Made by a program: the position numbers and the translations under genes | Notes under the pieces: model-generated | Database searches by the model: none | Seen by the model: the letters and a program-made list of their open reading frames with translations, nothing else | What the model was told of the DNA's origin: nothing | Part shown: positions 1,728-40,706 of the stretch, in pieces | Numbering within the stretch: position 1 is the first letter of the stretch | Layout: every line of letters begins with the position of its first letter | Origin: a bacterium | GTDB taxonomy: Bacteria; Patescibacteriota; Microgenomatia; Daviesbacterales; UBA10151 | Length of the DNA: 40,869 nucleotides | NCBI GenBank assembly: GCA_021786105.1 | Contig: JAJYNW010000013.1 | Span: forward strand, 1 to 40,869 | Direction of reading: 5' to 3'

Positions 1728-1824
1728 GTCATCCCGACGAATGTCGGGATCCAATTATTTGTCTCGAGCACAGTGAGAGATCTTTAGATTCAATCTTGAG
1801 ATTCCTCACTTCACTCGGAATGAC
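1728..1824. repeat. GTCAT-family palindromic element (inverted pair plus a degenerate middle unit)
   Basis: GTCATCCCGACGAATGTCGGGATCCA at 1728-1753; GAGATTCCTCACTTCACTCGGAATGAC at 1798-1824. Confidence 0.9.
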
Positions 1825-3029
1825 AATTTACGTTTTATTTTTTCCAGACTTTGAACCAGTTTATCTATATCTTCCATGCTGTTATAGATATAAAAGCTTA
1901 CCCTGGTACTGCCATTAATCCCCAATCTTTGATGGACTGGCATGGCGCAGTGGAAACCAGCCCGCACTGCAATCCCGTCCTTATCCAGCAAACTAGCCAC
2001 GTCATGCGGATGAATCCCGGCCAAGTTAAAAGCAATAATGCCTCCTCTTTTTTCTTCTTCTTTTGGGCCATAAATAGTTAAACCATCTATTTTTGAAAGT
2101 TTTTTTAAAGCATATTCTGTTAAAGCTTTTTCGTGTTGCCTGACTTTATCCATTCCCAGCTTTTGTAAATAATCTATTGCCGCCCCCAGTCCAATCACCC
2201 CTTCAATATTGGGCGTGCCGGCTTCAAACTTGTGCGGGGCCTCCGCAAAGCTGGTCTTTTCTAAAGTCACCTCACTCACCATCCCGCCTCCGGTTAAAAA
2301 TGGTGGCAATTTATCAGCAATTTCTTTTTTCACCCACAGCACCCCCACCCCGCTCGGCCCCAGCATTTTGTGCCCGGAAAAGACATAAAAATCACAACCC
2401 AATTTTTTAACATCCACTTTCATATGCGGCACTGCTTGAGCTCCGTCAACTAACACCAAAGCCCCTACCTGGTGCGCTTTTTGGGTAATTTCTTTAACCG
2501 GATTAATCGTTCCTAGAACATTAGAAACATGAGTAATCGCCACCAAAGAAACACCTTTTAACTTATTGTCCAGATCAGATAAATCTAATTCTCCTTTATC
2601 ATTTATATCCAAAACAACCCTCTGTTGCCTGTTGCCTGTCACCTGTTGCCTCATTAATTCCTGCCAAGGCACCAAATTGCTGTGGTGTTCCATCACCGAA
2701 AGTATAATTTTAGAGCCCTTTGTAATATTGGCTTCTCCCCAAACTTTGGCCACCAAGTTAATGGCTTCAGTGGTGTTTTTGGTAAAAATCACCTCATCTG
2801 GGGAAGCATTAATCAATTTGGCCACTTTACCTCGAACGCTTTCATATTCTTGAGTTGATTTTTCTGATAGCTGGTAAATTCCCCTGTGCACATTAGCCAA
2901 ATAGCTGCGGCAGCAATCTGCCACTGCCTCAATCACCTGCTTTGGCTTCAGTGAGGTGGCAGCAGAATCCAAATAAACCAAGTTCTTCCCATTTATCTTC
3001 TGTTTCAATATGGGAAAATCCTTATTCAT
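1806..3029 (-). CDS. sufS: Cysteine desulfurase SufS (group II)
   Basis: YLDSAATS, MEHHSN, SGHKM (PLP lysine), FEAGTP, RAGFHCA. Confidence 0.95.
   Translation of the reverse strand: MNKDFPILKQKINGKNLVYLDSAATSLKPKQVIEAVADCCRSYLANVHRGIYQLSEKSTQEYESVRGKVAKLINASPDEVIFTKNTTEAINLVAKVWGEANITKGSKIILSVMEHHSNLVPWQELMRQQVTGNRQQRVVLDINDKGELDLSDLDNKLKGVSLVAITHVSNVLGTINPVKEITQKAHQVGALVLVDGAQAVPHMKVDVKKLGCDFYVFSGHKMLGPSGVGVLWVKKEIADKLPPFLTGGGMVSEVTLEKTSFAEAPHKFEAGTPNIEGVIGLGAAIDYLQKLGMDKVRQHEKALTEYALKKLSKIDGLTIYGPKEEEKRGGIIAFNLAGIHPHDVASLLDKDGIAVRAGFHCAMPVHQRLGINGSTRVSFYIYNSMEDIDKLVQSLEKIKRKLSFRVK
2622..2651. repeat. 7-bp tandem array (CTGTTGC x4) in-frame in sufS
   Basis: ctgttgc ctgttgc ctgtcac ctgttgc ct; encodes RQQVTGNRQQ. 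Confidence 0.8.
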
Positions 3030-4365: not shown

Positions 4366-4457
4366 GTCATCCTGAGGCGATTAGCCGAAGGATCTCTAGA
4401 CTGGTTCTAGATACATCTGAAATTAATTCAGAGATTCTTCACTGCGTTCAGAATGAC
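4366..4457. repeat. GTCAT-family palindromic element (inverted pair)
   Basis: GTCATCCTGAGGCGATTAGCCGAAGGATCT at 4366-4395; GAGATTCTTCACTGCGTTCAGAATGAC at 4431-4457; two small hairpins in the spacer. Confidence 0.9.
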
Positions 4458-5212
4458 AAATAACCTTTCTCCTCAATTTCCTTAACTAGCTTTAAACTGC
4501 CGGACTGAACTATTTTCCCTTCTTTCATAATATGTACATACTTTGGCTTAACATATTGCAGGATTTTTTGGTTATGGGTAATCAAAATTATACCTGTACC
4601 ATTTTTTACCAACCCTTTAATCACTTTAGCTGCTATTTTAAGAGTATCAACATCAAGTCCACTGTCGATTTCATCAAGAATCACAAACTTTGGATTTAGA
4701 CTTAAAAGTAATAATAATTCTGCTTTTTTCTTTTCTCCCCCAGAAAAGCCATCATTGATAAATCGTTCCAGCATGTCCTCTTTTAAACCTAAAGATTTAG
4801 CCTGTTTTTTTACCTCGGTATAGAATTCTCTCACATCACGCTTATTGTCATCAGTAATATTTTTAAAAGATGCCCAGATTAGCTGCCCGAAAGTTATCCC
4901 GGGCACTGCTATCGGATTTTGGAAAGATACAAACAAGCCTAATTTGGCTCTTTCATTAGGATTTAAACTGAGTAAATTTTTTCCACCCAGCATGGCTAAG
5001 CCAGAAATTACTTGATAAGCCGGATGTCCCATTAAAGCCAAAGCCAAAGAAGACTTACCAGACCCATTTGGTCCCATTAAAGCATGTACCTCTCCGGGAT
5101 TAATAACTAAATTCACCTCAGAAACCACAGTTTTTCCTTGCCTCGCCGAAGCTTCCTGCAGAGGCGCGCCTTCCACCGCCACTGACAACCCTTGAATCTT
5201 AAGACTCTTCAT
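4448..5212 (-). CDS. sufC: Fe-S cluster assembly ATPase SufC
   Basis: HALMGPNGSGKS, GFSGGEKK, ILDEIDSGLDVD, IILITH. Confidence 0.95.
   Translation of the reverse strand: MKSLKIQGLSVAVEGAPLQEASARQGKTVVSEVNLVINPGEVHALMGPNGSGKSSLALALMGHPAYQVISGLAMLGGKNLLSLNPNERAKLGLFVSFQNPIAVPGITFGQLIWASFKNITDDNKRDVREFYTEVKKQAKSLGLKEDMLERFINDGFSGGEKKKAELLLLLSLNPKFVILDEIDSGLDVDTLKIAAKVIKGLVKNGTGIILITHNQKILQYVKPKYVHIMKEGKIVQSGSLKLVKEIEEKGYLSF
5135..5167. repeat. Short palindromic insert in-frame in sufC
   Basis: GC-rich GCCTCGCCGAAGCTTCCTGCAGAGGC; adds APLQEASARQG between VEG and KTVV. Confidence 0.6.
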
Positions 5213-5238
5213 CCCGCAAATTTTACCAAACTCTTCCT

Positions 5239-5276
5239 GTCATTGCGAGGATCGAGACCTCGACCCGAAGCAATCT
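5239..5276. repeat. GTCAT-family unit upstream of the GIY-YIG gene
   Basis: GTCATTGCGAGG-ATCGAGACCTCGACC-CGAAGCAATCT; its inverted partner ends at 5719. Confidence 0.9.
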
Positions 5277-5299
5277 AACTCGTGTAATATACTTAAGAT

Positions 5300-5587
5300 A
5301 TGAAATATTACTATGTTTATATTCTGACTAATAAGATAAACACTGTTTTGTATATAGGAGTAACTAACGATCTAATTAAGCGCATATATCAACATAAAAA
5401 TAAGCTGGTTAGTGGATTTACAGAAAAATACAACATTAACAAATTAATCTTTTTTGAGGTCTACGAAGATATCAATGAGGCCATTACAAGAGAAAAAAAG
5501 CTAAAAAACTGGCATAGGGAATGGAAAATGAATTTAATAAAGAGCAAGAATCCAAACTTCAATGATCTCTACAATACACTATTTTAA
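5300..5587 (+). CDS. Stand-alone GIY-YIG family nuclease
   Basis: YYVYIL...LYIGVTNDL.KR..QH...GFT.KY...EAITREKKLKNW.REWK; 95 aa; visibly AT-rich. Confidence 0.92.
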   Translation: MKYYYVYILTNKINTVLYIGVTNDLIKRIYQHKNKLVSGFTEKYNINKLIFFEVYEDINEAITREKKLKNWHREWKMNLIKSKNPNFNDLYNTLF

Positions 5588-5599
5588 ATCACCTTCATC

Positions 5600-5719
5600 G
5601 TCATCCTGAACTTGTTTCAGGATCTCTTTTGATAGGGATTCCGAAATAAATTCGGAATGACGCTTGGAAAACATATTGCTTCGTCTCCTTCGGCTACGCT
5701 CAGGACTCCTCGCAATGAC
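5600..5719. repeat. Cluster of GTCAT-family units downstream of the GIY-YIG gene
   Basis: GTCATCCTGAACTTGTTTCAGGATCT (5600-5625), GGATTCCGAAATAAATTCGGAATGAC (5636-5661), ATTGCTTCG...CCTCGCAATGAC (ends at 5719). Confidence 0.92.
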
Positions 5720-5743
5720 AATTTAATTAACCAAACCAATGAA

Positions 5744-5752
5744 TGGTATAAT
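5744..5752 (+). promoter_or_regulatory. Extended -10 element (TGGTATAAT), leaderless-type, for pflB
   Basis: Consensus TGnTATAAT 6 nt before the ATG at 5759; no Shine-Dalgarno. Confidence 0.7.
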
Positions 5753-5758
5753 TCGTAT

Positions 5759-7984
5759 ATGGGAAAAGCGTTCAAGACCGGTGAATGGGAAAAAGTAGTT
5801 GATATTAGGGATTTTTTGTATCACAACCTCTCCCCCTTTGATAAAGGCCCAGGATTTTTAACCGGCCCTTCTGAAAAAACTCAAAAACTCTGGGACCACT
5901 GTAAAACCTTACTCAAAAAAGAAGCTGAAAAAGGCGGAGTGTTAGATATTGACACCAAAACCATTTCCACTGTCATTTCCCATAAACCAGGTTACATCAA
6001 AAAAGATTTGGAAATCATTGTTGGCTTGCAAACTGATGAGCCGCTTAAACGAGCCATCAAACCTTTTGGCGGCATCCGGGTGGTGGAACAAGCCTGCCAG
6101 GATTACGGTTACACTTTAAGTCCGGAAGTTAAAGAAATTTTTATCAAATACCGCAAAAGTCACAACGACGGCATTTTTGATGCCTACACCAACGAAATGC
6201 GGGCTTACCGCTCTTCTGGGGTGATCACCGGTTTGCCGGACAACTACGCCCGCGGCCGGATTATTGGTGATTACCGCCGGGTGGCCCTTTACGGCATCGA
6301 CCGTTTAGTGGAAGAAAAACAAAAAGATTTTGATCAAAAATTAGGCGCTATGACTGATGAAACAATCCGGGAGCGGGAAGAAATCAGCGATCAAATTGAA
6401 GCTTTGCATCTAATCAAGGAAATGGCTGCCTCTTATGGTTTCGATATCAGCAAGCCAGCCCAGGATGCCAAAGAAGCTATCCAGTGGACCTATTTTGCCT
6501 ATTTAGCGGCTTTGAAAGAGCAGGACGGGGCAGCCATCTCTTTGGGTAATGTCAGTGGCTTTTTTGATGTTTACATAGAGAGAGACCTGGCTGAAGGCAA
6601 GTTGACTGAAGAAAAGGCTCAGGAATTAGTCGACCAATTCATTATCAAACTCAGAATGACCAGACAGCTGCGGATGAAAGAATATGATCAAATTTATGCC
6701 GGCGACCCGACCTGGCTAACCGAGGCTTTGGGCGGGATGTTTTTGGACGGCCGCCACAAAGTCACCAAAACCACCTACCGTTTTCTCCAATCACTTTACA
6801 ACTTAGGGCCGGCCCCTGAACCAAACTTAACGGTGCTGTGGTCAGAGAGTCTCCCGGAGCATTTCAAAAAATTCTGCGCCCAAGTCTCCATCGATACCTC
6901 CTCCATCCAGTATGAAAATGATGATTTGATGCGGCCGATTTCCGATTGTGACGATTATGGCATTGCCTGCTGCGTCTCTCAACAAAAATCCGGCAGCCAG
7001 ATGCAGTTTTTTGGGGCTAGGTGCAATTTGGCCAAAGCTTTACTCCTGGCTTTAAATGAAGGCAAAGATGAAAAAAGCGGCATACAGCTGGTAGAAGGAA
7101 TCAAAAGACTGGACAAAGAACCATTAGATTTTAACCAAGTTATGGCCGAGTTTAAAAAAACTTTGGCCCAGGTGGTCAAAACTTATGTCAACAGCATGAA
7201 TGTAATTCATTACATGCATGACAAATATTATTACGAGCGGGTGCAAATGGCTTTATTGGACACTGATTTGGATAGATTAATGGCTTTTGGCATTGCCGGC
7301 TTATCAGTGGTGGCTGATTCTTCATCTGCCATCAAATATGCCAAAGTCACTCCCCTGCGCGACCAAAACGGCATCACGGAAGATTTTAAAATTGAAGGCG
7401 ATTTTCCCAAATTTGGTAATGATGATGACCAGGTGGACTCAATTGCCAAGGAGCTGGTGGATGCTTTCAATGCTGAGCTCCGAAAACACCATATCTACAG
7501 AAATGCCACCCCTACCCTGTCCATTTTAACCATCACTTCCAATGTAATGTATGGTAAAAAAACCGGCGCTACCCCGGATGGTAGAAAGGCAGGAGAACCA
7601 TTTGCTCCCGGGGCCAATCCCATGCATGGCCGTGATACCCGGGGCGCCATTGCTTCATTAAATTCAGTGACCAAACTGGATTATAAAAATGCCCGGGACG
7701 GCATTTCCAATACCTTTTCCATTGTTCCCCGTGCTTTGGGCGGCACCAAAGAAGAACAGGTGGAAAATTTAGTTAATTTACTGGACGGCTATTTTGCCAA
7801 AAAAGCTCATCATTTAAATGTGAATGTTTTAAATAAAGATACTCTCCTTCGCGCCATGGCCCATCCGGAAGAATACCCTCAACTGACCATCAGAGTTTCC
7901 GGCTATGCTGTTAACTTTGTTAAACTCTCCCGGGAACACCAGCAGGAAGTCCTGGCCCGCACCTTCTTTGAGTCAATAAAATAA
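5759..7984 (+). CDS. pflB: Pyruvate formate-lyase (formate C-acetyltransferase)
   Basis: [17 protein letters not shown], catalytic IACCVS, glycyl-radical IRVSGYAV; start moved from 5657 (repeat-derived) to 5759. Confidence 0.96.
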
Positions 7985-14112: not shown

Positions 14113-15901
14113 ATTTCTTAAACTGAAGCTTATACATTTCCAATAGCTCTTTAACTGTCGTAGCATCTTCCGGTTTTTTGTCAGCCTCTCTAAATTTCAC
14201 TAACCGGGGAAACCTTAATGCATAACCCGGCTCAGAATCAGTTTTTCCGGCTGTATGCACCGGGCTTTTAGTAATCTCATCTGCCAAAACTTCGATCACA
14301 ATCTCCGGCTTAATCCAAACAGAAGGCACCAGAATTGAATTTACCCTGGCCGGTTTGTGATCCACTTTAATTTTGTCTGCTCTTTTATGAATCTCTCTCC
14401 ACTCCTCATCCGTTAACCCTGTGCCAATTTTAGACACCGTCACAAATTCGTCCTTCGACTCATCATAAACACCTACGAGCAGTGACCCGGCCCCAAACTC
14501 TGCCCTCTTTCCCCGGCCAAAAATATAGCCCAAAATTACACAATCAATGGTATCTTTCAGTTCACCGGCCGAATGCCTTTTTAATTTCACCCAGTTAAAA
14601 TTTCGGGCCCCAGCCTCATAGGTGGAATCCGGCTTTTTACAGACCAATCCTTCCAAACCTTTAGTGATAGCATCGTTGAAAAGCTCGTTAATCCGTTCTT
14701 CTGATTTGGTAAATTCCCCTGGCTGAGCAATCAACACTTCATCACCTGTTATTACCTCCTTCAGTCTTCTCATCCTATCCCGCAAAGATAAATCAATCAA
14801 AGATCGCCCATCCAAATACATCACATCAAAAACAAAGGCCTTAAGTGGCAGTTCTATAGCCATTTCTGCCACCTTGTATTTGCGCCGCCTTTTGGTAGTT
14901 TCCTGAAAAGGTAAAAATTCCTCGGATTGCGGATTAAAAGCCAAGGCTTCTGAATCTAAAATGGCAGTTTTTGCCTTAATTTGCTTCCTGACACCCTCGA
15001 TGATTTCCGGCATCATAGCCGTAGTTTCTTCCAAATTCCGGGAAAACAGCCTTACTTGATCCCCGTTTTTGTGAATCTGCACCCTAAATCCATCATATTT
15101 ATATTGGATATGAACTTCCCCGCCAAACTTTTCTAAAATGGTTTTGGCATCAGGCAGTCTTTCAGCCAACTGCGACCTAATTGGCCTGCCGACCGTAACA
15201 TCCAGCTTTTTAACTCCCTCCAAACCCTTTTTCCAAAGCACCTGGCCAATTAAACCTAAATCAGAAGTTTTATTGTAAGCCCCTTCCAACTCTTTCCTCT
15301 TTTTACGGTCACCTAATTTGGCGAGAGCAAAAGCATCTAAAATAGTCGGATCACCAACCCCCAACCTGGAAGTTCCCAGAGGAATCCGGACTAAGTGTTT
15401 GGCGGAAATTGGATTAGCTTTTTGTAAAAGATCTACCAGCAGTGCCTGTTTTTTTTCTACTGTCCCCTCGCCAGTTATTTGAGCAATTTCTTTCAACACC
15501 TCAAAAACCCTTTCCACTGTCATTCCGGCCCCTGAGCCGGAATCTATATTTTTGGATCCCTGCTTTCCCCGCAAGGGGACTAGCTTCTTCGAAGCATCGC
15601 GCAGGGATGACAATTTGTAGGCCACTACCCCCAAATCCCCTACCCGACCATACTCTTTTAAAACTTCCTCCCGGTCTATTCCGTAAGCTTTGGCAATACT
15701 GGCGGCCACTGTCCGTTCTGCCATCCCAATCTCAATCGGCTCATAAAAGGGGGCTACCCGGCCCTGAATCAGATAAACCACTTTAGCAATTTCCTCTGCT
15801 TTCACCTCTTTAAACAGCTCGGAAAGAATATCAATTAGAGCTAGTCTCGAGGAAGTTTGTTCCAATTTTTCAAAATATTCAGCCAGTTGGGAAAATAACA
15901 T
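14111..15901 (-). CDS. lig: ATP-dependent DNA ligase (archaeal/LigI-like architecture)
   Basis: YKYDGFRVQIH (KxDG), FSRNLE, VFDVMY, EGLVCK, WVKLK, ALRFPR; N-terminal DNA-binding domain. Confidence 0.93.
   Translation of the reverse strand: MLFSQLAEYFEKLEQTSSRLALIDILSELFKEVKAEEIAKVVYLIQGRVAPFYEPIEIGMAERTVAASIAKAYGIDREEVLKEYGRVGDLGVVAYKLSSLRDASKKLVPLRGKQGSKNIDSGSGAGMTVERVFEVLKEIAQITGEGTVEKKQALLVDLLQKANPISAKHLVRIPLGTSRLGVGDPTILDAFALAKLGDRKKRKELEGAYNKTSDLGLIGQVLWKKGLEGVKKLDVTVGRPIRSQLAERLPDAKTILEKFGGEVHIQYKYDGFRVQIHKNGDQVRLFSRNLEETTAMMPEIIEGVRKQIKAKTAILDSEALAFNPQSEEFLPFQETTKRRRKYKVAEMAIELPLKAFVFDVMYLDGRSLIDLSLRDRMRRLKEVITGDEVLIAQPGEFTKSEERINELFNDAITKGLEGLVCKKPDSTYEAGARNFNWVKLKRHSAGELKDTIDCVILGYIFGRGKRAEFGAGSLLVGVYDESKDEFVTVSKIGTGLTDEEWREIHKRADKIKVDHKPARVNSILVPSVWIKPEIVIEVLADEITKSPVHTAGKTDSEPGYALRFPRLVKFREADKKPEDATTVKELLEMYKLQFKK
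15519..15611. repeat. GTCAT-family element in-frame in the ligase gene
   Basis: GTCATTCCGGCCCCTGAGCCGGAATCT...GGATCCCTGC[nested hairpins]GCAGGGATGAC; 93 bp. Confidence 0.9.
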
Positions 15902-18595: not shown

Positions 18596-21500
18596 TTAAT
18601 GATGGTCTACATATCCGTCCCAAGCCTTAATCTCCAAATCTTCCTTTTTCTTGGAAGCCAAAGACGACACAAAAAGCTCTGCTGCCTGCAGATTAGTAAT
18701 TAAAGGTATACCTAAATCCACACAATTCCTTCTAATAATATAGCCAGCAGTCTCCCCAGCTTCTGATCTGGGTTTAGAAATGTTAATCACTAAATCTATG
18801 ATGCCCTCTTTTATCGGATCTAAGATGGAAGGGTACTTTTTCTCAGCGATTTTATGAAGTAAGGTATTTTTAATACCATGTTGGCTCAAGAATTTTGAGG
18901 TATGATCAGTAGCATAAATCTTAAAACCAAGTTCTGCCAATATTTTAGCTGATGGCAGTAAATCTAATTTACTTTTCTCCCCGCCAATTGTTAAAAATAC
19001 AGAACTTTTAGGCATTTTAAAACCAACTGCCAGGATGGCCTTAAGATACGCTTCCTGCAAATCTGAACCAAAACAGGCTACCTCTCCAGTCGAAGACATC
19101 TCTACCCTAAGCCGCGGATCTGCTCCTTTAATCCGGTTAAAGGAAAACTGCGGAGCCTTAACCCCCACATAATCTAAATCAATGGTTTTATAAGTGCCAG
19201 ACAACTTCTCCCCCAACATCACCCGAGTAGCCATCTCCACAAAATTAAATCCCGTGACTTTAGAAACAAACGGGAAAGAACGGGAAGCCCGTGAGTTTAA
19301 CTCAATCACCATAATCTCGTTATCCTTGGCCAAAAACTGAATATTAAACGGACCGTTGATATTCAAGGCTTTGATTATCTTTCTGGTAGCGTCTTTGATC
19401 TTCCTAACAGTTTCCAAAAATAACCTCTGCGGCGGTAATACAATGGTAGCATCACCGGAATGCACGCCGGCATTTTCCACATGCTCAGAGATAGCGTAAA
19501 TTAACAGATCTCCTTTTTGTCCAACCCCATCTACTTCAATCTCCTTAGCCCCGTCCACAAACTTGGAAATTACCACCGGATGCTCAGCGGATACATCGGA
19601 AGCATCTTGCAGGTATTTTTTCAAATCACTATCAGAATAAGCCACATTCATGGCCGATCCTGACAACACATAAGAAGGCCTGATCAGAACCGGAAAACCG
19701 ATGGATTTAGCAAATCCTACAGCCTCATTAAGATCTTTCAAGCTTTGCCAGGGTGCTTGTTTAATCTCTAGCTGATCTAATAATTTGGAGAATTTATTTC
19801 TATCTTCTGCCTGATCAATGCTTTCGGGGGAAGTTCCCAAAATCTGATAGCCAGCTTGAAAACACTGCATTGCCAAATTATTCGGCACTTGTCCCCCAAA
19901 TCCTAATACCAGCGAAACATTTCCTGAATTGTCATCCCGAACTCGTTTCGGGATCTTCATATCAGATGCTGAAACAAGTTCAGCATGACATAGTGATTGG
20001 TTTTCGATATCATATATATCACTCACCCTTTCAAAGGTCAGCTCGTCAAAATACAACTTATCTGCTGAGTCGTAATCAGTTGAAACCGTTTCCGGATTGC
20101 AGTTTATGATAATTGTCTCCAAACCTTTATCCCGTAGAGTTTGAGCACAGGTGACAGAACACCAGTCAAATTCCACCGAAGAACCAATCCGGTAGGGTCC
20201 AGAACCTAAAACAATGGCTTTTTTGGCCTTTGATTCTTTTAGTTCTTCTGATTCTTCTCCATGATAAGTCAAATACAAATAGTTGGTCTTGGCTGGATAT
20301 TCGGCTGCTAAGGTATCAATGTGTTTAACTTTAGGCGTAATTCCATGCTTTTTTCTAAACTCTCTAACTTCATCTTCGGTAACCTTAAAGGCTTTAGCCA
20401 ACAACTTATCCGAAAATCCCAGTTTTTTAGCCTGCAGCACTATTTGGGAACTGATGGTTGACAACTGAAGGCTCTTTTCAAACTCAACAATTTCTTTTAT
20501 TTGATATAGAAACCAGGGATCAATACCAGTAGCCTCATAAATGTTTTCTACAGATTCGCCTTTGGCAAATCTTTGCGCAATGGCAAATAACCGTTCAGTA
20601 GTAGGTAACAGCTTGGTATCGTCTACCTCATTACCCAACAAGCCATCTTGGCCGGTTTCCAACATCCGAATGGCTTTTTGTAAGACTTCCGGAAAACTTC
20701 GGCCGATAGCCATAACTTCGCCCACGCTTTTCATCTCCGAACCGATTTGCTCTTTGGCTCCGACAAACTTTTGCAAATCCCACCGCGGAATTTTAACCAC
20801 AATATAATCCAAAGCTGGTTCAAAAAAAGCTGAAGTAGATAAAGTGACGCTGTTTTTTAAATCCGGCAGGTTATAACCCAAACCAATTTTAGCCGCGATA
20901 TAGGCCAACGGGTAGCCGGTGGCTTTAGAAGCCAAAGCTGATGAACGGGACAGCCTGGCGTTTACCTCAATCACCCGGTAATCGTTATTCTCCGGATTTA
21001 AGGCAAACTGAATGTTACACTCCCCCACAATTCCCAGATGCTCGATTACCTGCAAAGAAATTTTCCGGAGATAATGGTACTGATAATTATTCAAAGTTTG
21101 AGACGGAGCCACCACGATACTTTCCCCTGTATGAACCCCCAAAGGATCCAAATTTTCCATATTACAAACAGTGATCTTATTACCGTTGTTATCCCGCACT
21201 ACCTCATATTCGATTTCCTTCCAGTGCTTTAAGTATTCTTCGATGGCAATTTGCGGGGCTTGCTTTAAAGCCGCCGTCACCATTTTGATAAATCCCTCTT
21301 TACTGTTGACCACCCCGGACCCCAAACCACCCAGAGAAAATCCGGATCTGATCAAAAGTGGGTATCCCAAATCATTGGCAATTTTCAAAGCTTCGTCCAA
21401 GGACCGGGCAAATCCCCCTTTCGGAACTTTCACTCCGATTTTGGAAAGCTCCCCGGCAAATAATTCTCTATCCTCTGTCACTTCAACGGCTTTAACCGGT

Positions 21501-25386: not shown

Positions 25387-26512
25387 TTTGACCATTCTCT
25401 ACCTTTAAAATCCTGGCTGAGTCTAAAAATGACTGCGGAATATTTTCCAGTTCCACGGTGGCAATCACTGTTTGCTGTTTGGAAACCACCTCCACCACAT
25501 GAGCCCGGTGAGAAGCATCTAGTTCAGAAAATACATCGTCTAGCAATAGTATTGGTCTGGTACCCAAAATTTGAGCCATGTATTCCAACTGGGCCAATTT
25601 AAAAGCCAGAGTGGCAGTTCTATGTTCCCCTCGGGAGCCAAATTTAGCTACATTCCTACCATTGTCATTCTGAGGAGTCTTCGACGAAGAATCTCCCACG
25701 GATGTGGGACTCAAACTAGTTGAGAGATCCTTCACTTCGTTCAGGATGACAATACGGAAATCATCCCGGTGCGGCCCAATTAAAGTCGCTGCCGCTGCTA
25801 TTTCCCGCTCCTGCGTTTGAACCAACTTTTCTTCAGAAACCTTGTTTGGAAGATACTCAAACCGAAATTCTCCTAAGGGTTTTTCCAAAGTATTGATAAA
25901 CTCAAAAAAAGCCAGCCTTTTTGTTGAAATAATTTGCCCGTTTTCCACTAGACCGGCAGTCCAATAATCCAGCTCATCCTTCCTCCCCTGCCCTTCCCTA
26001 ATTCTTTTTAATACCCTGTTTCGAGCGGTTAAAAATTGCTCATAATTTGTCAAAGCTTTTTTATACTCATGATCAACTTGAACCAAAGCCAAATCCAAAT
26101 GCCATCGCCGTAAACTGGGTGATCCGGTCACCATATTAATATCAGAGGGGTAAAAAATAATCGCCGGCAGGTGACCAATAAAATCCACTACCCTACGGGA
26201 AATTCCATTAACCAATACTTTCTTTTTAAACCCCACCTCCTTAGATGGCCTGTTGATAATTACCAGCAACTCAGTTTCCCCTGTGTTTGTCAAAAAACCC
26301 TCAACCCTTGTAAACTCTTCCCCTTTTTTGATCAGTTCATCCTCAGTTTCCACCCGCAGGGATTTGGTGGTAGACAGTAGATAAATTGCCTCCAAAATAT
26401 TGGATTTACCAGCCGCATTGTTGCCGACTAGGATGGTGGGACGGGTATCAAAGTCAAGCTCTAGATTAGAATAGTTGCGAAAATTGGTTAAATTTAGCTT
26501 TTTCAAAAACAT
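25376..26512 (-). CDS. recF: DNA replication/repair protein RecF
   Basis: NFRNY, GNNAAGKSN, GSPSLRR, GPHRDD, GSRGE, LLLDDVFSELD. Confidence 0.95.
   Translation of the reverse strand: MFLKKLNLTNFRNYSNLELDFDTRPTILVGNNAAGKSNILEAIYLLSTTKSLRVETEDELIKKGEEFTRVEGFLTNTGETELLVIINRPSKEVGFKKKVLVNGISRRVVDFIGHLPAIIFYPSDINMVTGSPSLRRWHLDLALVQVDHEYKKALTNYEQFLTARNRVLKRIREGQGRKDELDYWTAGLVENGQIISTKRLAFFEFINTLEKPLGEFRFEYLPNKVSEEKLVQTQEREIAAAATLIGPHRDDFRIVILNEVKDLSTSLSPTSVGDSSSKTPQNDNGRNVAKFGSRGEHRTATLAFKLAQLEYMAQILGTRPILLLDDVFSELDASHRAHVVEVVSKQQTVIATVELENIPQSFLDSARILKVENGQITS
25664..25750. repeat. GTCAT-family element in-frame in recF
   Basis: GTCATTCTGAGGAGTCTTCGACGAAGAATCT...AGATCCTTCACTTCGTTCAGGATGAC; 87 bp. 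Confidence 0.92.
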
Positions 26513-32406: not shown

Positions 32407-32523
32407 GTCATCCCGACGAATGTCGGGATCCAATTAAACACGAGCGGTAAAAGTATTCAAGTGGAAAGTTTAAATTTCCAACCACCCACTTCTAAATTGG
32501 ATTCCTGCCTTCGCAGGAATGAC
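32407..32523. repeat. GTCAT-family element (intergenic inverted pair)
   Basis: GTCATCCCGACGAATGTCGGGATCCAATTA (identical to 1728-1757) ... TGGATTCCTGCCTTCGCAGGAATGAC. Confidence 0.92.
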
Positions 32524-38456: not shown

Positions 38457-40706
38457 TCAAAACTTAAACAACTTCATTTCTCCCCAATTAGGGCCGGTTT
38501 TGAGATCAACCAGAACCGGCACTGACAATTTTAAAGCATTTTCCATTTTTTCTTTGACCATCTTAGCAGTTTCTTTCACTGCTTTAGGGCCACATTCAAA
38601 CAACAACTCATCATGAACCTGTAAAATGAGACGGCAGCTTTCAGTATCGGCCTTCGGCCTGTCAGCTTTCAGACTTATCTTGTCTGATGACCGATGACTG
38701 ACGACTGACAGCTCTTTCTCAATTTCCACCATGGCTTTTTTGATCATATCGGCGGCCGTGCCCTGAACCGGGTGGTTAACCGCGGCTCTTTCCCCGGCAG
38801 AACGAATCATCCGGTTACCAACTTGCAGCTCCGGAATATACCTTTTCCGGCCCCACAAAGTCTCTACGTAGCCATTTTCATAGCCAAAAGCCAAAGTCTT
38901 CTCCATCCATTCCCGAACCTTGGGAAATTGGGCAAAATATTCAGCAATATATTGTCTGGCTTCTTCAAAACTGATGCCCAATTGCCGGGATAAAGCATGC
39001 GGACCTTGACCGTAAAGGGTAGCAAAGTTCATGGTTTTCCCCACCATTCTTTGCTGTTTTGAAACTTGTTCCAAAGGTACTTGAAAAATCTTGGAAGCAG
39101 TTAAGGCGTGGATATCTTCATTTTCCTTGAAAGCTTTCTTTAATCCCGGGTCATCTGCCAAATGAGCCATAATCCGCAGTTCAATTTGAGAATAATCCGC
39201 GCCCAACAACGCCTTGCCAAAAGGAGCAATGAAAGCTTTTCTGATTTCCCCACCCTCTTCACCTTTAACCGGAATATTTTGCAAATTCGGATCTTTAGAG
39301 GAAAGCCTGCCGGTCGCTGCTCCTTCTACATTAAAAGTCGAGTGGATCCTGCACTTTTCATCCACGAACTTCGGCAAAGCATCAACGTAGGTAGAAATCA
39401 ATTTAAATAATTGCCGGTATTCCAAGAGTAGCGGTACCGCCGGATGAGCACCATATAATTCATGTAAGGTAGCTTCGTCTGTGGAACGGCCGGTTTTGGT
39501 TTTCCTGACCACCGGCAATTTTAACTCATCAAACAGCACCACCGAGAGCTGCTTGGGGCTGTTTAAGTTAAACTCATGCCCGACTTTTTCATAAATCTCT
39601 GCCTCTATTTTGGTTAACCGGTCTTTCAGCTTCTTACCAAATTTTTCCAAAAACTTCAGGTCCACCAGCACCCCGGTTTCTGACATTTTTTTAAGAATCG
39701 GTTCCACTTCCGCATCTAAGTCCATTGTTTTGTCATTCTGAGGGTCGTTTCGACCCGAAGAATCTCTAGGTTCTTGCTTTTTAATCTTGAGATCCTTCGC
39801 TTCGCTCAGGATGACAGAAAAGGAATTGCCGACTGAAGCATCATCAGGCAATCTGGCAATTAAGCTTTTAAACTCCAGTTCCTCAAAAAGCTTGACCACT
39901 TTTTCCTTATCAAAATCATGCACCACGCATTTATGCAGATCCAGCTTAATGGGGGCATTTAGATCCAAAGTAGCCAGCTTTTTACTCATCATTGCCGATT
40001 CTGCCCCTTCCGATAAAAGCATCTGCGTTCGATCCGGCATGGTTTTTAAATTTTCCGGTTTATATATCTCTTCAATAGTGCCGAATTTATGTATCAGTTT
40101 CGTGGCTGTCACATCCCCAATTCCCGCGACCCCCGGAATATTATCCGAAGCATCCCCGGCCAAACCTTTATAATCCGTCAGCTGCTTGGGAAAAAAACCG
40201 TATTTGGCCACAAACTCCTCTACCCCATACAAACCTACATCCGAAAGAGTTTTTTTGGGCATGAAAACTTTTATCCGCTCATCAATCAGCTGCATAATAT
40301 CCCGATCCCCTGTCACAATCACAATTTCCAAATCCTTTTCTTTTTCTGCCTGGATGGCCAAAGTACCAATCAAGTCATCAGCTTCAAATCCGGCCAACTT
40401 AAATTCCGGAATATTAAATGCCTTAACCACCTCATGCACCCTTTTATACTGGCTGGATAAACCATCGTCAGCAGGGCCGCGGGTGGCTTTATATTGGGTG
40501 TAAGCTTGATGTCTAAAGGTAGGCCCTTTTTCATCCCAGGCAATGGCTAAATATTCCGGACGAAGCTCGGCAATCACCTTTAAAATCATCGAGGAAAAAC
40601 CATAAACAGCGTTAACTAGTTCACCTTTTGAAGTCGTAAATGGCGGAGTGGCATGATAGGCTCGGTGCAGTAAGGCATTACCATCAACTAGGACAAGTCT
40701 TCGCAC
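38457..40706 (-). CDS. polA: DNA polymerase I (5'-3' exonuclease plus polymerase; 3'-5' exonuclease domain absent)
   Basis: LVDGN..LHRAY, EADD, GDASDNIPGV, TGRLSS.DPNLQNIP, ADYSQIELR, QGTAAD, LQVHDEL; GTG start with AAGGAGG SD. Confidence 0.96.
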   Translation of the reverse strand: MRRLVLVDGNALLHRAYHATPPFTTSKGELVNAVYGFSSMILKVIAELRPEYLAIAWDEKGPTFRHQAYTQYKATRGPADDGLSSQYKRVHEVVKAFNIPEFKLAGFEADDLIGTLAIQAEKEKDLEIVIVTGDRDIMQLIDERIKVFMPKKTLSDVGLYGVEEFVAKYGFFPKQLTDYKGLAGDASDNIPGVAGIGDVTATKLIHKFGTIEEIYKPENLKTMPDRTQMLLSEGAESAMMSKKLATLDLNAPIKLDLHKCVVHDFDKEKVVKLFEELEFKSLIARLPDDASVGNSFSVILSEAKDLKIKKQEPRDSSGRNDPQNDKTMDLDAEVEPILKKMSETGVLVDLKFLEKFGKKLKDRLTKIEAEIYEKVGHEFNLNSPKQLSVVLFDELKLPVVRKTKTGRSTDEATLHELYGAHPAVPLLLEYRQLFKLISTYVDALPKFVDEKCRIHSTFNVEGAATGRLSSKDPNLQNIPVKGEEGGEIRKAFIAPFGKALLGADYSQIELRIMAHLADDPGLKKAFKENEDIHALTASKIFQVPLEQVSKQQRMVGKTMNFATLYGQGPHALSRQLGISFEEARQYIAEYFAQFPKVREWMEKTLAFGYENGYVETLWGRKRYIPELQVGNRMIRSAGERAAVNHPVQGTAADMIKKAMVEIEKELSVVSHRSSDKISLKADRPKADTESCRLILQVHDELLFECGPKAVKETAKMVKEKMENALKLSVPVLVDLKTGPNWGEMKLFKF
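38635..38712. repeat. Inverted 7-bp arrays in-frame in polA next to motif C
   Basis: cagcttt cagtat cggcctt cggcctgt cagcttt cag ... ctgatga ccgatga ctgacga ctgacag ct. Confidence 0.8.
39732..39815. repeat. GTCAT-family element in-frame in polA
   Basis: GTCATTCTGAGGGTCGTTTCGACCCGAAGAATCT...AGATCCTTCGCTTCGCTCAGGATGAC; 84 bp. Confidence 0.92.

Follow-up and report, generated by a model that had tools for sequence, protein, structure and literature searches.

A hairpin-bounded GIY-YIG gene between sufC-like and pflB-like genes

The stretch analysed here (the window, 40,869 nt) is contig C3 of genome G000, an assembly of 1,037,274 bases in 26 contigs with 40% GC. Our subject is a cassette at 5239-5719, in which an open reading frame (ORF) for a 95-aa GIY-YIG protein stands between inverted hairpin repeats and which, as argued below, very probably represents an Ssn-type system of nuclease and cognate hairpins. 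The ORF has 27% GC, against 42% for the window, and is flanked by a sufC-like gene (4448-5212, minus strand) and a pflB-like gene (ATG at 5772, inside the listed ORF 5657-7984). An earlier note, made from the sequence alone, had placed this AT-rich gene inside an outer inverted pair, with an inner pair at 5600-5661, and the features found at the locus bear out both descriptions:

5239-5275, plus strand: outer left hairpin unit, GTCATTGCGAGG...GCAATC, left end of the cassette; fold -5.5 kcal/mol, z -1.35
5300-5587, plus strand: ssn-like gene, predicted single-domain GIY-YIG nuclease of Ssn / cd10448 type, 95 aa (PF01541, homolog alignment)
5600-5661: nested gene-less convergent doublet, 62 nt, with units at 5600-5624 (plus) and 5637-5661 (minus) and a 12-nt spacer; z -4.21
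5675-5719, minus strand: outer right hairpin unit, composite 45-nt class, right end of the cassette; weak fold, z +0.16

The outer left unit is built of a TGTCAT tag, an ATTGC...GCAAT stem with tandem G.A mismatches, an inner stem-loop and a final C. The outer right unit, whose class is found intact at G000:C18:18428-18473, has an A in place of the usual C after the palindrome. The outer termini TGTCATTGCGAGGA and TCCTCGCAATGACA are 100% complementary over 14 nt, as are the further segments CGAAGCAAT and ATTGCTTCG of the pair, and by nearest-neighbour energies the outer units alone fold weakly, with the z-scores listed above. The nested doublet consists of two 8-bp hairpins placed between the gene and the outer right unit, and its left arm also scores as terminator-like. 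A scan of 5100-5850 for sigma-70-type promoters returned 0 sites, and Rfam at the gathering threshold returned 0 matches over the whole window.

The protein aligns with NTS-flanked GIY-YIG nucleases

The prototype of the Ssn family is SsnA of Neisseria meningitidis (CAX49033.1), a 94-aa GIY-YIG endonuclease (cd10448) that binds its hairpin only as single-stranded DNA (ssDNA) and cuts a few nucleotides upstream (Chenal et al. 2025, Nat Commun, PMC11893778, cited here and below from excerpts of its text). The repeat, NTS, is 28 nt long (CGTCATTCCCGCG...GGGAATCYRG), and a degenerate Ssn-related motif (SRM) was also defined. The Ssn family was delimited by homology to SsnA at E < 1e-10 over >75% of its length, with Y6, Y17 and E64 as catalytic residues (PMC11893778).

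The window protein matched PF01541 (GIY-YIG; E 6.4e-18, residues 3-78) and no second Pfam family, and its fold is assigned on the basis of Pfam and alignment. A search at E <= 1e-5 recovered 2886 homologs of 52-167 aa, the top 120 of which share 63-100% identity (the 100% row being the window's own protein), and Y5, Y7, Y18, G20, R28, H32 and E65 are invariant in a 22-sequence alignment. Two proteins served as stand-ins for SsnA in the homology comparison. The first, L099, is encoded by a gene bracketed by exact NTS consensus copies (1443-1470, plus; 1802-1829, minus) and is identical to the window protein at 49/93 residues (53%; E 3e-39, with 93 of 95 residues covered). The second, the 94-aa NTS-flanked L100 protein, is identical at 47/89 residues (53%), and Y7, Y18 and E65 of the window protein align with its Y6, Y17 and E64, the positions mutated in the published SsnA (PMC11893778).

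Genome G000 encodes three small GIY-YIG proteins, and two of the three genes are bracketed by hairpins. These two ssn copies, on C3 (the window) and C9, are divergent, scoring 171 and 121 bits on the Ssn-clade profile. The third gene (C14:31034-31273) is YhbQ-like, belongs to another clade at 50.6 bits and has no flanking hairpins. UPF0213/YhbQ-type proteins, like I-TevI-type homing endonucleases, resemble the window protein in the GIY-YIG catalytic fold only; unlike the I-TevI type, the window protein has neither a DNA-binding domain nor an intron context.

Hairpin units with compensated stems are dispersed across the genome

A search for GTCAT followed by a 5-bp closure and C returned 111 units in the genome and 29 in one shuffle. 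The pattern GTCATYSYGRN{5,35}RSRATC separated signal from background more sharply, with 91 units in the genome against 0-5 in five shuffles and with 48+44 hits against 0+1 for a reversed-pattern control. A strict hairpin finder (perfect stem >= 6 bp, any span) had separated poorly, with 51 hits against 23-33, and was dropped. The pattern fixes GTCAT...ATC and leaves three stem pairs free for a complementarity test: all three are complementary in 87/91 units, whereas 1000 shuffles gave a mean of 19.6 and a maximum of 35. The description of the stems in the earlier note as variable but compensated is therefore correct.

Tandem G.A mismatches occur in about half of the units (52/91 at pair 9 and 40/91 at pair 10). 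The base preceding GTCAT is T in 73/91 units and C in 11/91, the base following ATC is T in 74/91, and the unit tail is thus C and then mostly T, not CCA. Only some units, such as GTCATCCCGACGAATGTCGGGATC, fit a structure of 8-9-bp stem, 4-5-nt loop and CCA tail; in many, composite loops extend to as much as 35 nt. The hairpin classes include ATCCCGAC, ATCCTGAAC, ATTGCGAG and ATYCTGAG with G.A. Searched with <=2 mismatches, the bare 11-mer GTCATTGCGAG shows no enrichment (9 matches, 6.6 expected; 23/100 shuffles reach 9). Pairs of units lying within 150 nt of each other are exclusively convergent (22 pairs, comprising 44/91 units; 0 divergent, 0 tandem), their spacers are themselves palindromic, often of the form TCTAGA...TCTWGA, and the doublets fold at z -2.9 to -5.1 relative to shuffles. 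With 75 distinct sequences among the 91 units, and doublets that are mosaics of differing left units, right units and spacers, the units are not recent copies. Fully inside ORFs of >= 120 aa lie 45/91 units; these crude ORFs cover 88% of the genome, and the figure denotes depletion only.

The same pattern gave 688 hits in G044 (Bradyrhizobium huanghuaihaiense, the genome of locus L037), many of them in regularly spaced convergent pairs. Its hits include the unit classes GTCATTGCGAGCGAAGCGAAGCAATC and GTCATTGCGAGGAGCGAAGCGACGAAGCAATC, both also seen in G000, and hairpin classes are thus shared across phyla.

Hairpins accompany the nuclease gene across phyla and within the genus

To relate the gene to the hairpins we used the flanks of the best 80 of 596 confirmed homolog loci, drawn from many phyla, and 41 related genomes, 19 of them of the same genus, in which a profile match of >= 90 bits was taken as an Ssn-clade gene. 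Hairpins lie within 250 nt of the homolog gene upstream at 67/80 loci, downstream at 65/80 and on both sides at 57/80, and GTCAT hairpin density reaches 4.82/kb near the homologs against 0.114/kb beyond 500 nt (42-fold). The published SRM motif shows the same tendency at lower frequency, occurring within 250 nt at 19/80 loci, 10 of them on both sides (0.81/kb against 0.012/kb distally); in the published survey, SRM was found near 71% of ssnA homologs and on both sides of 42% (PMC11893778).

Hairpin number also follows gene content. In the 22 relatives that carry an Ssn-clade gene the median hairpin count is 61, and in the 19 that lack one it is 1 (Mann-Whitney p 8.6e-7, a value that overstates the case because the relatives are not independent). 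Hairpin and ssn copy numbers are correlated across the 41 relatives (Spearman rho = 0.79) and within the genus (rho = 0.71, n = 19), where distribution of the gene is patchy (12/19 genomes). The canonical NTS, scanned with <=1 mismatch in 401 genomes of one order, is present in 86 of them, a tally that includes G339 and G250, which are flagged as unpublished and used nowhere else here.

Taken together, the alignment with NTS-flanked nucleases, the flank enrichment and the copy-number tracking argue that the locus is, in all likelihood, an Ssn-type system, in which an Ssn-family (cd10448) GIY-YIG endonuclease is associated with TGTCAT...ATC hairpins as its cognate Ssn-related motifs, equivalent to CGTC/TGTC-tagged repetitive extragenic palindromes (REPs). 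The link between nuclease and hairpins drawn in the earlier note is likewise upheld by these two associations, by the differing hairpins of the RAYT-like Y1 genes in the genome (see below) and by the published biochemistry of homologs (PMC11893778).

Several observations weigh against this assignment. The published SRM motif occurs nowhere in the window and at 8 sites in the genome (shuffle mean 1.5), and exact NTS copies flank 0/80 of the related loci; the local hairpins are accordingly variants beyond the published SRM search pattern, and their cleavage specificity is extrapolated. The left unit and the nested doublet show every element of the core in common with SRM (GTC tag, AT stem, trailing C); missing from the outer right unit is the trailing C, reported as most critical for binding in homologs (PMC11893778). 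The expectation that repeat copy number would follow the gene holds for medians and correlation and breaks down in G012, which is 100% complete and holds 78 hairpins without an Ssn-clade gene; G020 (34), G016 (15) and G032 (14) also carry hairpins without the gene, and in G004 and in G037 the gene is accompanied by a mere 5 hairpins. Among the five NTS-richest genomes, three encode a homolog at E <= 1e-8 and two encode none. A PDB sequence search matched 0 solved structures. Finally, in population data comprising assembled contigs (not raw reads) of four runs from two studies, no empty allele of the window cassette was present, and its sole variation was one single-nucleotide polymorphism, 5262 G>A in the outer left unit of strains X3-X5.

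Gene-less doublets in the window reach into host genes

Seven further GTCAT...ATGAC doublets had been noticed in the window, and all seven are present at the places cited:

1728-1824: gene-less doublet, right unit 1800-1824; z -3.85
4366-4457: gene-less doublet between sufB-like and sufC-like genes, right unit 4433-4457; z -2.94
15519-15611: doublet; pattern match
19931-19989: gene-less doublet, 59 nt; pattern match
25664-25750: gene-less doublet, 87 nt, tandem G.A class units; pattern match
32407-32523: doublet with long spacer, 117 nt in all; pattern match
39732-39815: gene-less doublet, 84 nt; z -5.11

Two of them supply the ends of suf genes. The right unit at 1800-1824 encodes the last six codons and stop (…LSFRVK*) of the sufS-like ORF 1806-3029, and that at 4433-4457 the last two codons and stop (…SF*) of the sufC-like ORF 4448-5212. 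With the gatA start codon described below, insertions have thus rewritten the stop codons of two genes and the start codon of a third, a direct effect on host coding sequence.

In one X5 contig (depth 6.45), a 24-nt deletion at 15522 (15522-15545) removes the left hairpin of the 15519 doublet. It is the only polymorphism of hairpin presence in the population contigs, and reflects either presence and absence of a hairpin between near-identical strains or palindrome slippage. The same contigs show strain variation inside the 5' part of the sufC-like gene, where 126 nt at 5081-5208 are replaced by 96 other letters in X3, X4 and X5 between near-identical flanks. No joint in these contigs skips the cassette. 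The many apparent joints between 5625 and 19964 and between 1825 and 5238 were rejected as rearrangements; their sides are only 22-27 nt long and derive from other unit copies. No RNA data set was listed among those that contain the locus.

The cassette occupies different sites in related genomes

The second ssn cassette of G000 (contig C9) lies between gatC and gatA. Among 17 congeners assessable at this site, the two genes overlap or lie 3-4 nt apart in seven (G004, G008, G009, G011, G015, G016 and G018), eight have unrelated spacers of ~40-110 nt without GTCAT units, and two (G000 and G005) carry the cassette between a left TGTCAT and a right ATGAC, the ATG of the right tag being the start codon of gatA. 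In the C9 cassette of G000, the gene spans exactly from a TCTAGA motif to the next TCTAGA, a motif that also lines the spacers of many gene-less doublets. A G005 cassette located after fusA has the gene and the nested doublet in common with the window cassette (73% identity) and nothing beyond the tags. These comparisons show the hairpin-ssn-hairpin cassette as a discrete insertion, with the TGTCAT and ATGAC tags as its ends, that has entered G000 at least twice, at sufC/pflB and at gatC/gatA. In G013, the gatC/gatA spacer contains a different perfect palindrome, AAGGTCAGACCTTGAG..CTCAAGGTCTGACCTT, at the place of the ssn cassette of G000, which may belong to another repeat family.

The ssn copies of congeners occupy non-orthologous loci. 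At the orthologous fusA site of G015 (L098), two units enclose an ssn gene shortened to 77 aa, which looks like an intermediate of deletion. By gatA identity to G000 (72.7%), G005 ranks only 10th of 11, whereas the two ssn copies are 81.6% identical, which, with a marginal excess at third codon positions, suggests a second gain of the gatC/gatA cassette. A recent transfer between G000 and G005 was considered and rejected, the third-position identities (ssn 51/75, gatA 117/212, gatC 32/61) being marginal and confounded by the codon bias of AT-rich sequence.

The earlier note had proposed a look for an empty sufC-pflB site in relatives; the site is variable among them but not cleanly informative. 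G015 has ~235 nt with neither hairpins nor gene; in G001 (L082) a degenerate left unit precedes a hydrophobic ORF of ~105 aa, unrelated to ssn and standing in its place; G017 has a gene-less doublet beside sufC plus other genes; and G012 has other genes and no units. No target-site duplication was established at the gatC/gatA or sufC/pflB junctions. An AT-rich likeness between the flanks of the window cassette may reflect orthology rather than duplication, and a ~28-nt imperfect repeat flanking the fusA-following cassette in G005 and G015 may be a relic half-unit. In a protein tree of 83 sequences, the phyla are mixed (35 label changes against a minimum of 23); with 94 columns, 50/80 branches open and 5/80 starred, this poorly resolved tree gives no proof of transfer.

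Relation to known repeat systems

The locus had been presented as a candidate new mobile system, and its newness is not supported: the repeats were catalogued in 2013, and the GIY-YIG link, the layout and the REP/RAYT analogy (RAYT, REP-associated tyrosine transposase) are all in print (PMC11893778). The suspicion, voiced in the same note, that similar repeats might already be catalogued was well founded. Di Nocera, De Gregorio and Rocco (2013, PMC3733652, likewise cited from excerpts) described CGTC-tagged REPs with a CGTC or TGTC tag, A-T at the first two stem positions and a predominance of head-to-head dimers. Neisserial dRS3 and the rickettsial repeats RPE-4 and RPE-6 belong to this class. 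A dedicated transposase was, in their conclusion, apparently lacking, and the survey as excerpted recorded no CGTC-flanked Y1 gene. The repeat system remained unexplained from 2013 until 2025, and the earlier note recognised it from sequence alone when its kind was already in print.

The G000 units agree with CGTC-tagged REPs in terminal tag, AT first stem positions, head-to-head dimers, mixed subfamilies per genome and the lack of an attached Y1 gene. They differ in that the catalogued repeats have 8-9-bp stems, 4-5-nt loops and a CCA tail, of which only the tail C is kept here, many units being longer; the five phyla listed in the excerpted 2013 survey include none of the candidate phyla radiation. 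The likeness to Ssn/NTS of N. meningitidis extends to a single-domain protein of ~94-95 aa whose catalytic Y, Y and E are in register, to a gene between inverted hairpins that have a GTC tag, an AT-starting stem and, save in the outer right unit, a C behind the stem, to dispersed repeats that number tens to hundreds and lie mostly outside genes, and to a genome-level correlation between gene and repeat. Here, however, the prevailing tag is TGTC (73/91 units) and not CGTC, stems are AT-richer and about half bear tandem G.A, long composite loops are common among the units, the window units escape the published SRM motif, and the host genome, of Patescibacteria type, measures ~1 Mb. To such a genome the locus extends the combination of Ssn and hairpins.

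The NTS-ssnA-NTS layout has been called "identical to" an insertion sequence (IS) and likened to REP/RAYT and IS200/IS605 (PMC11893778). With REP/RAYT and REPIN systems the locus shares a small nuclease gene between inverted hairpins, dispersed doublets, a predicted recognition of ssDNA hairpins and a patchy distribution, but those systems use an HUH Y1 enzyme with a covalent tyrosine intermediate and a GTAG tag, whereas a hydrolytic GIY-YIG enzyme and another tag are found here. With IS200/IS605 it shares small size, subterminal hairpins predicted to be read as ssDNA and no obvious role for long terminal inverted repeats beyond the hairpins, but the cassette has neither a Y1 transposase nor TnpB. 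Compared with insertion sequences in general, it has perfect 14-nt terminal inverted repeats and no known transposase class.

The first interpretation was thus right in outline, though not new, and the present analysis adds modestly to the question of mobility. What is new is the existence of hairpins outside the SRM motif, the tracking of hairpins with ssn in 41 relatives and the gatC/gatA cassette with its ends at TGTCAT and ATGAC. The SRM motif finds 8 sites in a genome with about 90 units, missing the AT-rich and G.A-mismatched variants, so that SRM-based surveys undercount. The empty and filled gatC/gatA sites, the truncated intermediate and the within-genus correlation provide comparative material on the question, raised in both papers, of a dedicated mobilising enzyme.

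Candidate mechanism and alternative explanations

By analogy with the published homologs, the Ssn protein would bind the hairpin only when the DNA is single-stranded, for instance during replication or in incoming transforming DNA, would recognise the GTC tag, a stem starting with AT and the C that comes next, and would hydrolyse the hairpin strand a few nucleotides 5' of the tag. Because the tags of a doublet always face outward, such cuts would fall just outside both of its ends, on opposite strands, in a geometry that would suit excision or homing. Hydrolytic GIY-YIG enzymes have no known step that joins strands, and an Ssn-driven spread of the doublets is therefore plausible but unproven; counting against doublets moved by the nuclease are the 78 hairpins that G012 holds without an Ssn-clade gene and the 75 distinct sequences among 91 units.

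The system may instead have been domesticated as a host function, in which hairpins would mark ssDNA for Ssn cleavage, so that incoming DNA recombines less, as it does in N. meningitidis, and would be kept as useful or neutral sequences that do not transpose. This accords with the only function of the family shown by experiment, that SsnA lowers transformation by NTS-bearing DNA, an ssnA knockout having a 5-fold higher, NTS-dependent rate (PMC11893778). The stability of the cassette across strains of two studies agrees with it, as does the co-option of hairpins by sufS and sufC for their stop codons and by gatA for its start codon, and units that are old and diverse with compensated stems fit long-term selection on structure. 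It leaves unexplained, however, why hairpins frame the gene on both sides at 57/80 loci across phyla and why only 12/19 genomes of the genus have it; the mixing of phyla in the protein tree, albeit poorly resolved, also speaks against it, and there is no demonstration of natural transformation for this organism. We regard domestication as a tentative possibility, to be given somewhat less than even credence.

An active transposon, in which Ssn would serve an IS-like element as transposase and gene-less doublets would be its non-autonomous copies still arising, similar to miniature inverted-repeat transposable elements (REPIN-like), is doubtful though possible. It would account for a discrete insertion ending at the tags, the truncated 77-aa ssn of L098 between two units, the exact placement of the C9 gene between TCTAGA motifs that also line doublet spacers, the exclusively convergent pairs, the correlation of hairpin number with the gene, the non-orthologous positions of ssn copies in congeners and the hairpin present or absent between strains. 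Against it stand the diversity of units and the mosaic doublets, the divergence of the two ssn copies of G000 (171 and 121 bits), the lack of an established target-site duplication at gatC/gatA or sufC/pflB, the lack of an empty allele in the population contigs, the persistence of hairpins in G012 without the gene, and the enzymology: GIY-YIG enzymes are hydrolytic, and the excerpted text reports no joining activity for them (PMC11893778).

A related proposal, also on the unlikely side, is that the cassette is an autonomous mobile element of a class undemonstrated in prokaryotes, in which a GIY-YIG ssDNA nuclease would act with host repair or replication functions to excise or home the hairpin-bounded segment; the gene-less doublets would then be its miniature derivatives and the L098 copy an intermediate. 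If a mobile-element reading were true, the gatC/gatA site, empty in 7/17 congeners and filled in two, would be a natural test substrate.

It is improbable that the protein is a free-standing GIY-YIG homing endonuclease, which would cut double-stranded empty sites and be copied in by repair, with the hairpins as a preferred target only. The sole NCBIfam match of the protein is to TIGR01453 (group I intron endonuclease; E 3.8e-4), at 20.5 bits far below the cut-off of 56.05, and for a protein of only 95 aa without a DNA-binding domain an intron-endonuclease identity was rejected. The filled gatC/gatA site in both G000 and G005, with gatA less similar (72.7%, 10th of 11) than ssn (81.6%), would suit homing, but the third-position excess is marginal and subject to the AT-rich codon confounding noted above, and tested Ssn homologs had no activity on double-stranded DNA in the excerpted account (PMC11893778).

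Y1 transposases form a separate system in the genome

The statement in the earlier note that no HUH or DDE transposase is present is true of the window, and the cassette contains no DDE, Y1 or TnpB gene; the genome nonetheless has five matches to PF01797 (HUH Y1), all on other contigs, four of them RAYT-like of ~220 aa and one IS200-like:

C20:58288-58521: RAYT-like Y1 gene (PF01797)
C12:12192-12422: RAYT-like Y1 gene (PF01797)
C26:9088-9339: RAYT-like Y1 gene (PF01797)
C14:12447-12701: RAYT-like Y1 gene (PF01797)
C23:7624-7983: IS200-like gene, 144 aa (PF01797)

Searches of the genome for PF07282 (TnpB) and PF01609 found neither, and rve matches lie only on other contigs. Each RAYT-like gene is framed by its own hairpins, CCACC..GGTGG followed by a GTATTGACAC-like sequence, and no GTCAT unit lies within 1 kb of any of the four. 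No RAYT or IS with the same ends as the cassette was found, and a second, independent REP/RAYT-like system thus coexists with the Ssn system in this 1-Mb genome, with no Y1 gene between the window repeats. That these HUH transposases spread the GTCAT hairpins, with the GIY-YIG gene as a bystander, is very improbable: although Y1 genes occur in the genome and in 36/41 relatives and correlate weakly with hairpin counts overall (rho = 0.44), the correlation vanishes within the genus (rho = 0.25, p = 0.31), Y1 matches are many where hairpins are few (8 and 4, respectively, in G003; 8 and 3 in G010; 4 and 0 in G026) and absent where hairpins are many (0 and 35 in G033; 0 and 20 in G011), the RAYT-like genes carry different hairpins, and in the 2013 survey, as excerpted above, CGTC repeats flank no Y1 gene (PMC3733652). 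Immediately after the RAYT-like gene at C26:9088-9339 lies a frameshifted C-terminal Ssn-like fragment (L103; …FEDINAAITREKQIK…), as if the RAYT-like cassette had inserted into an ssn gene.

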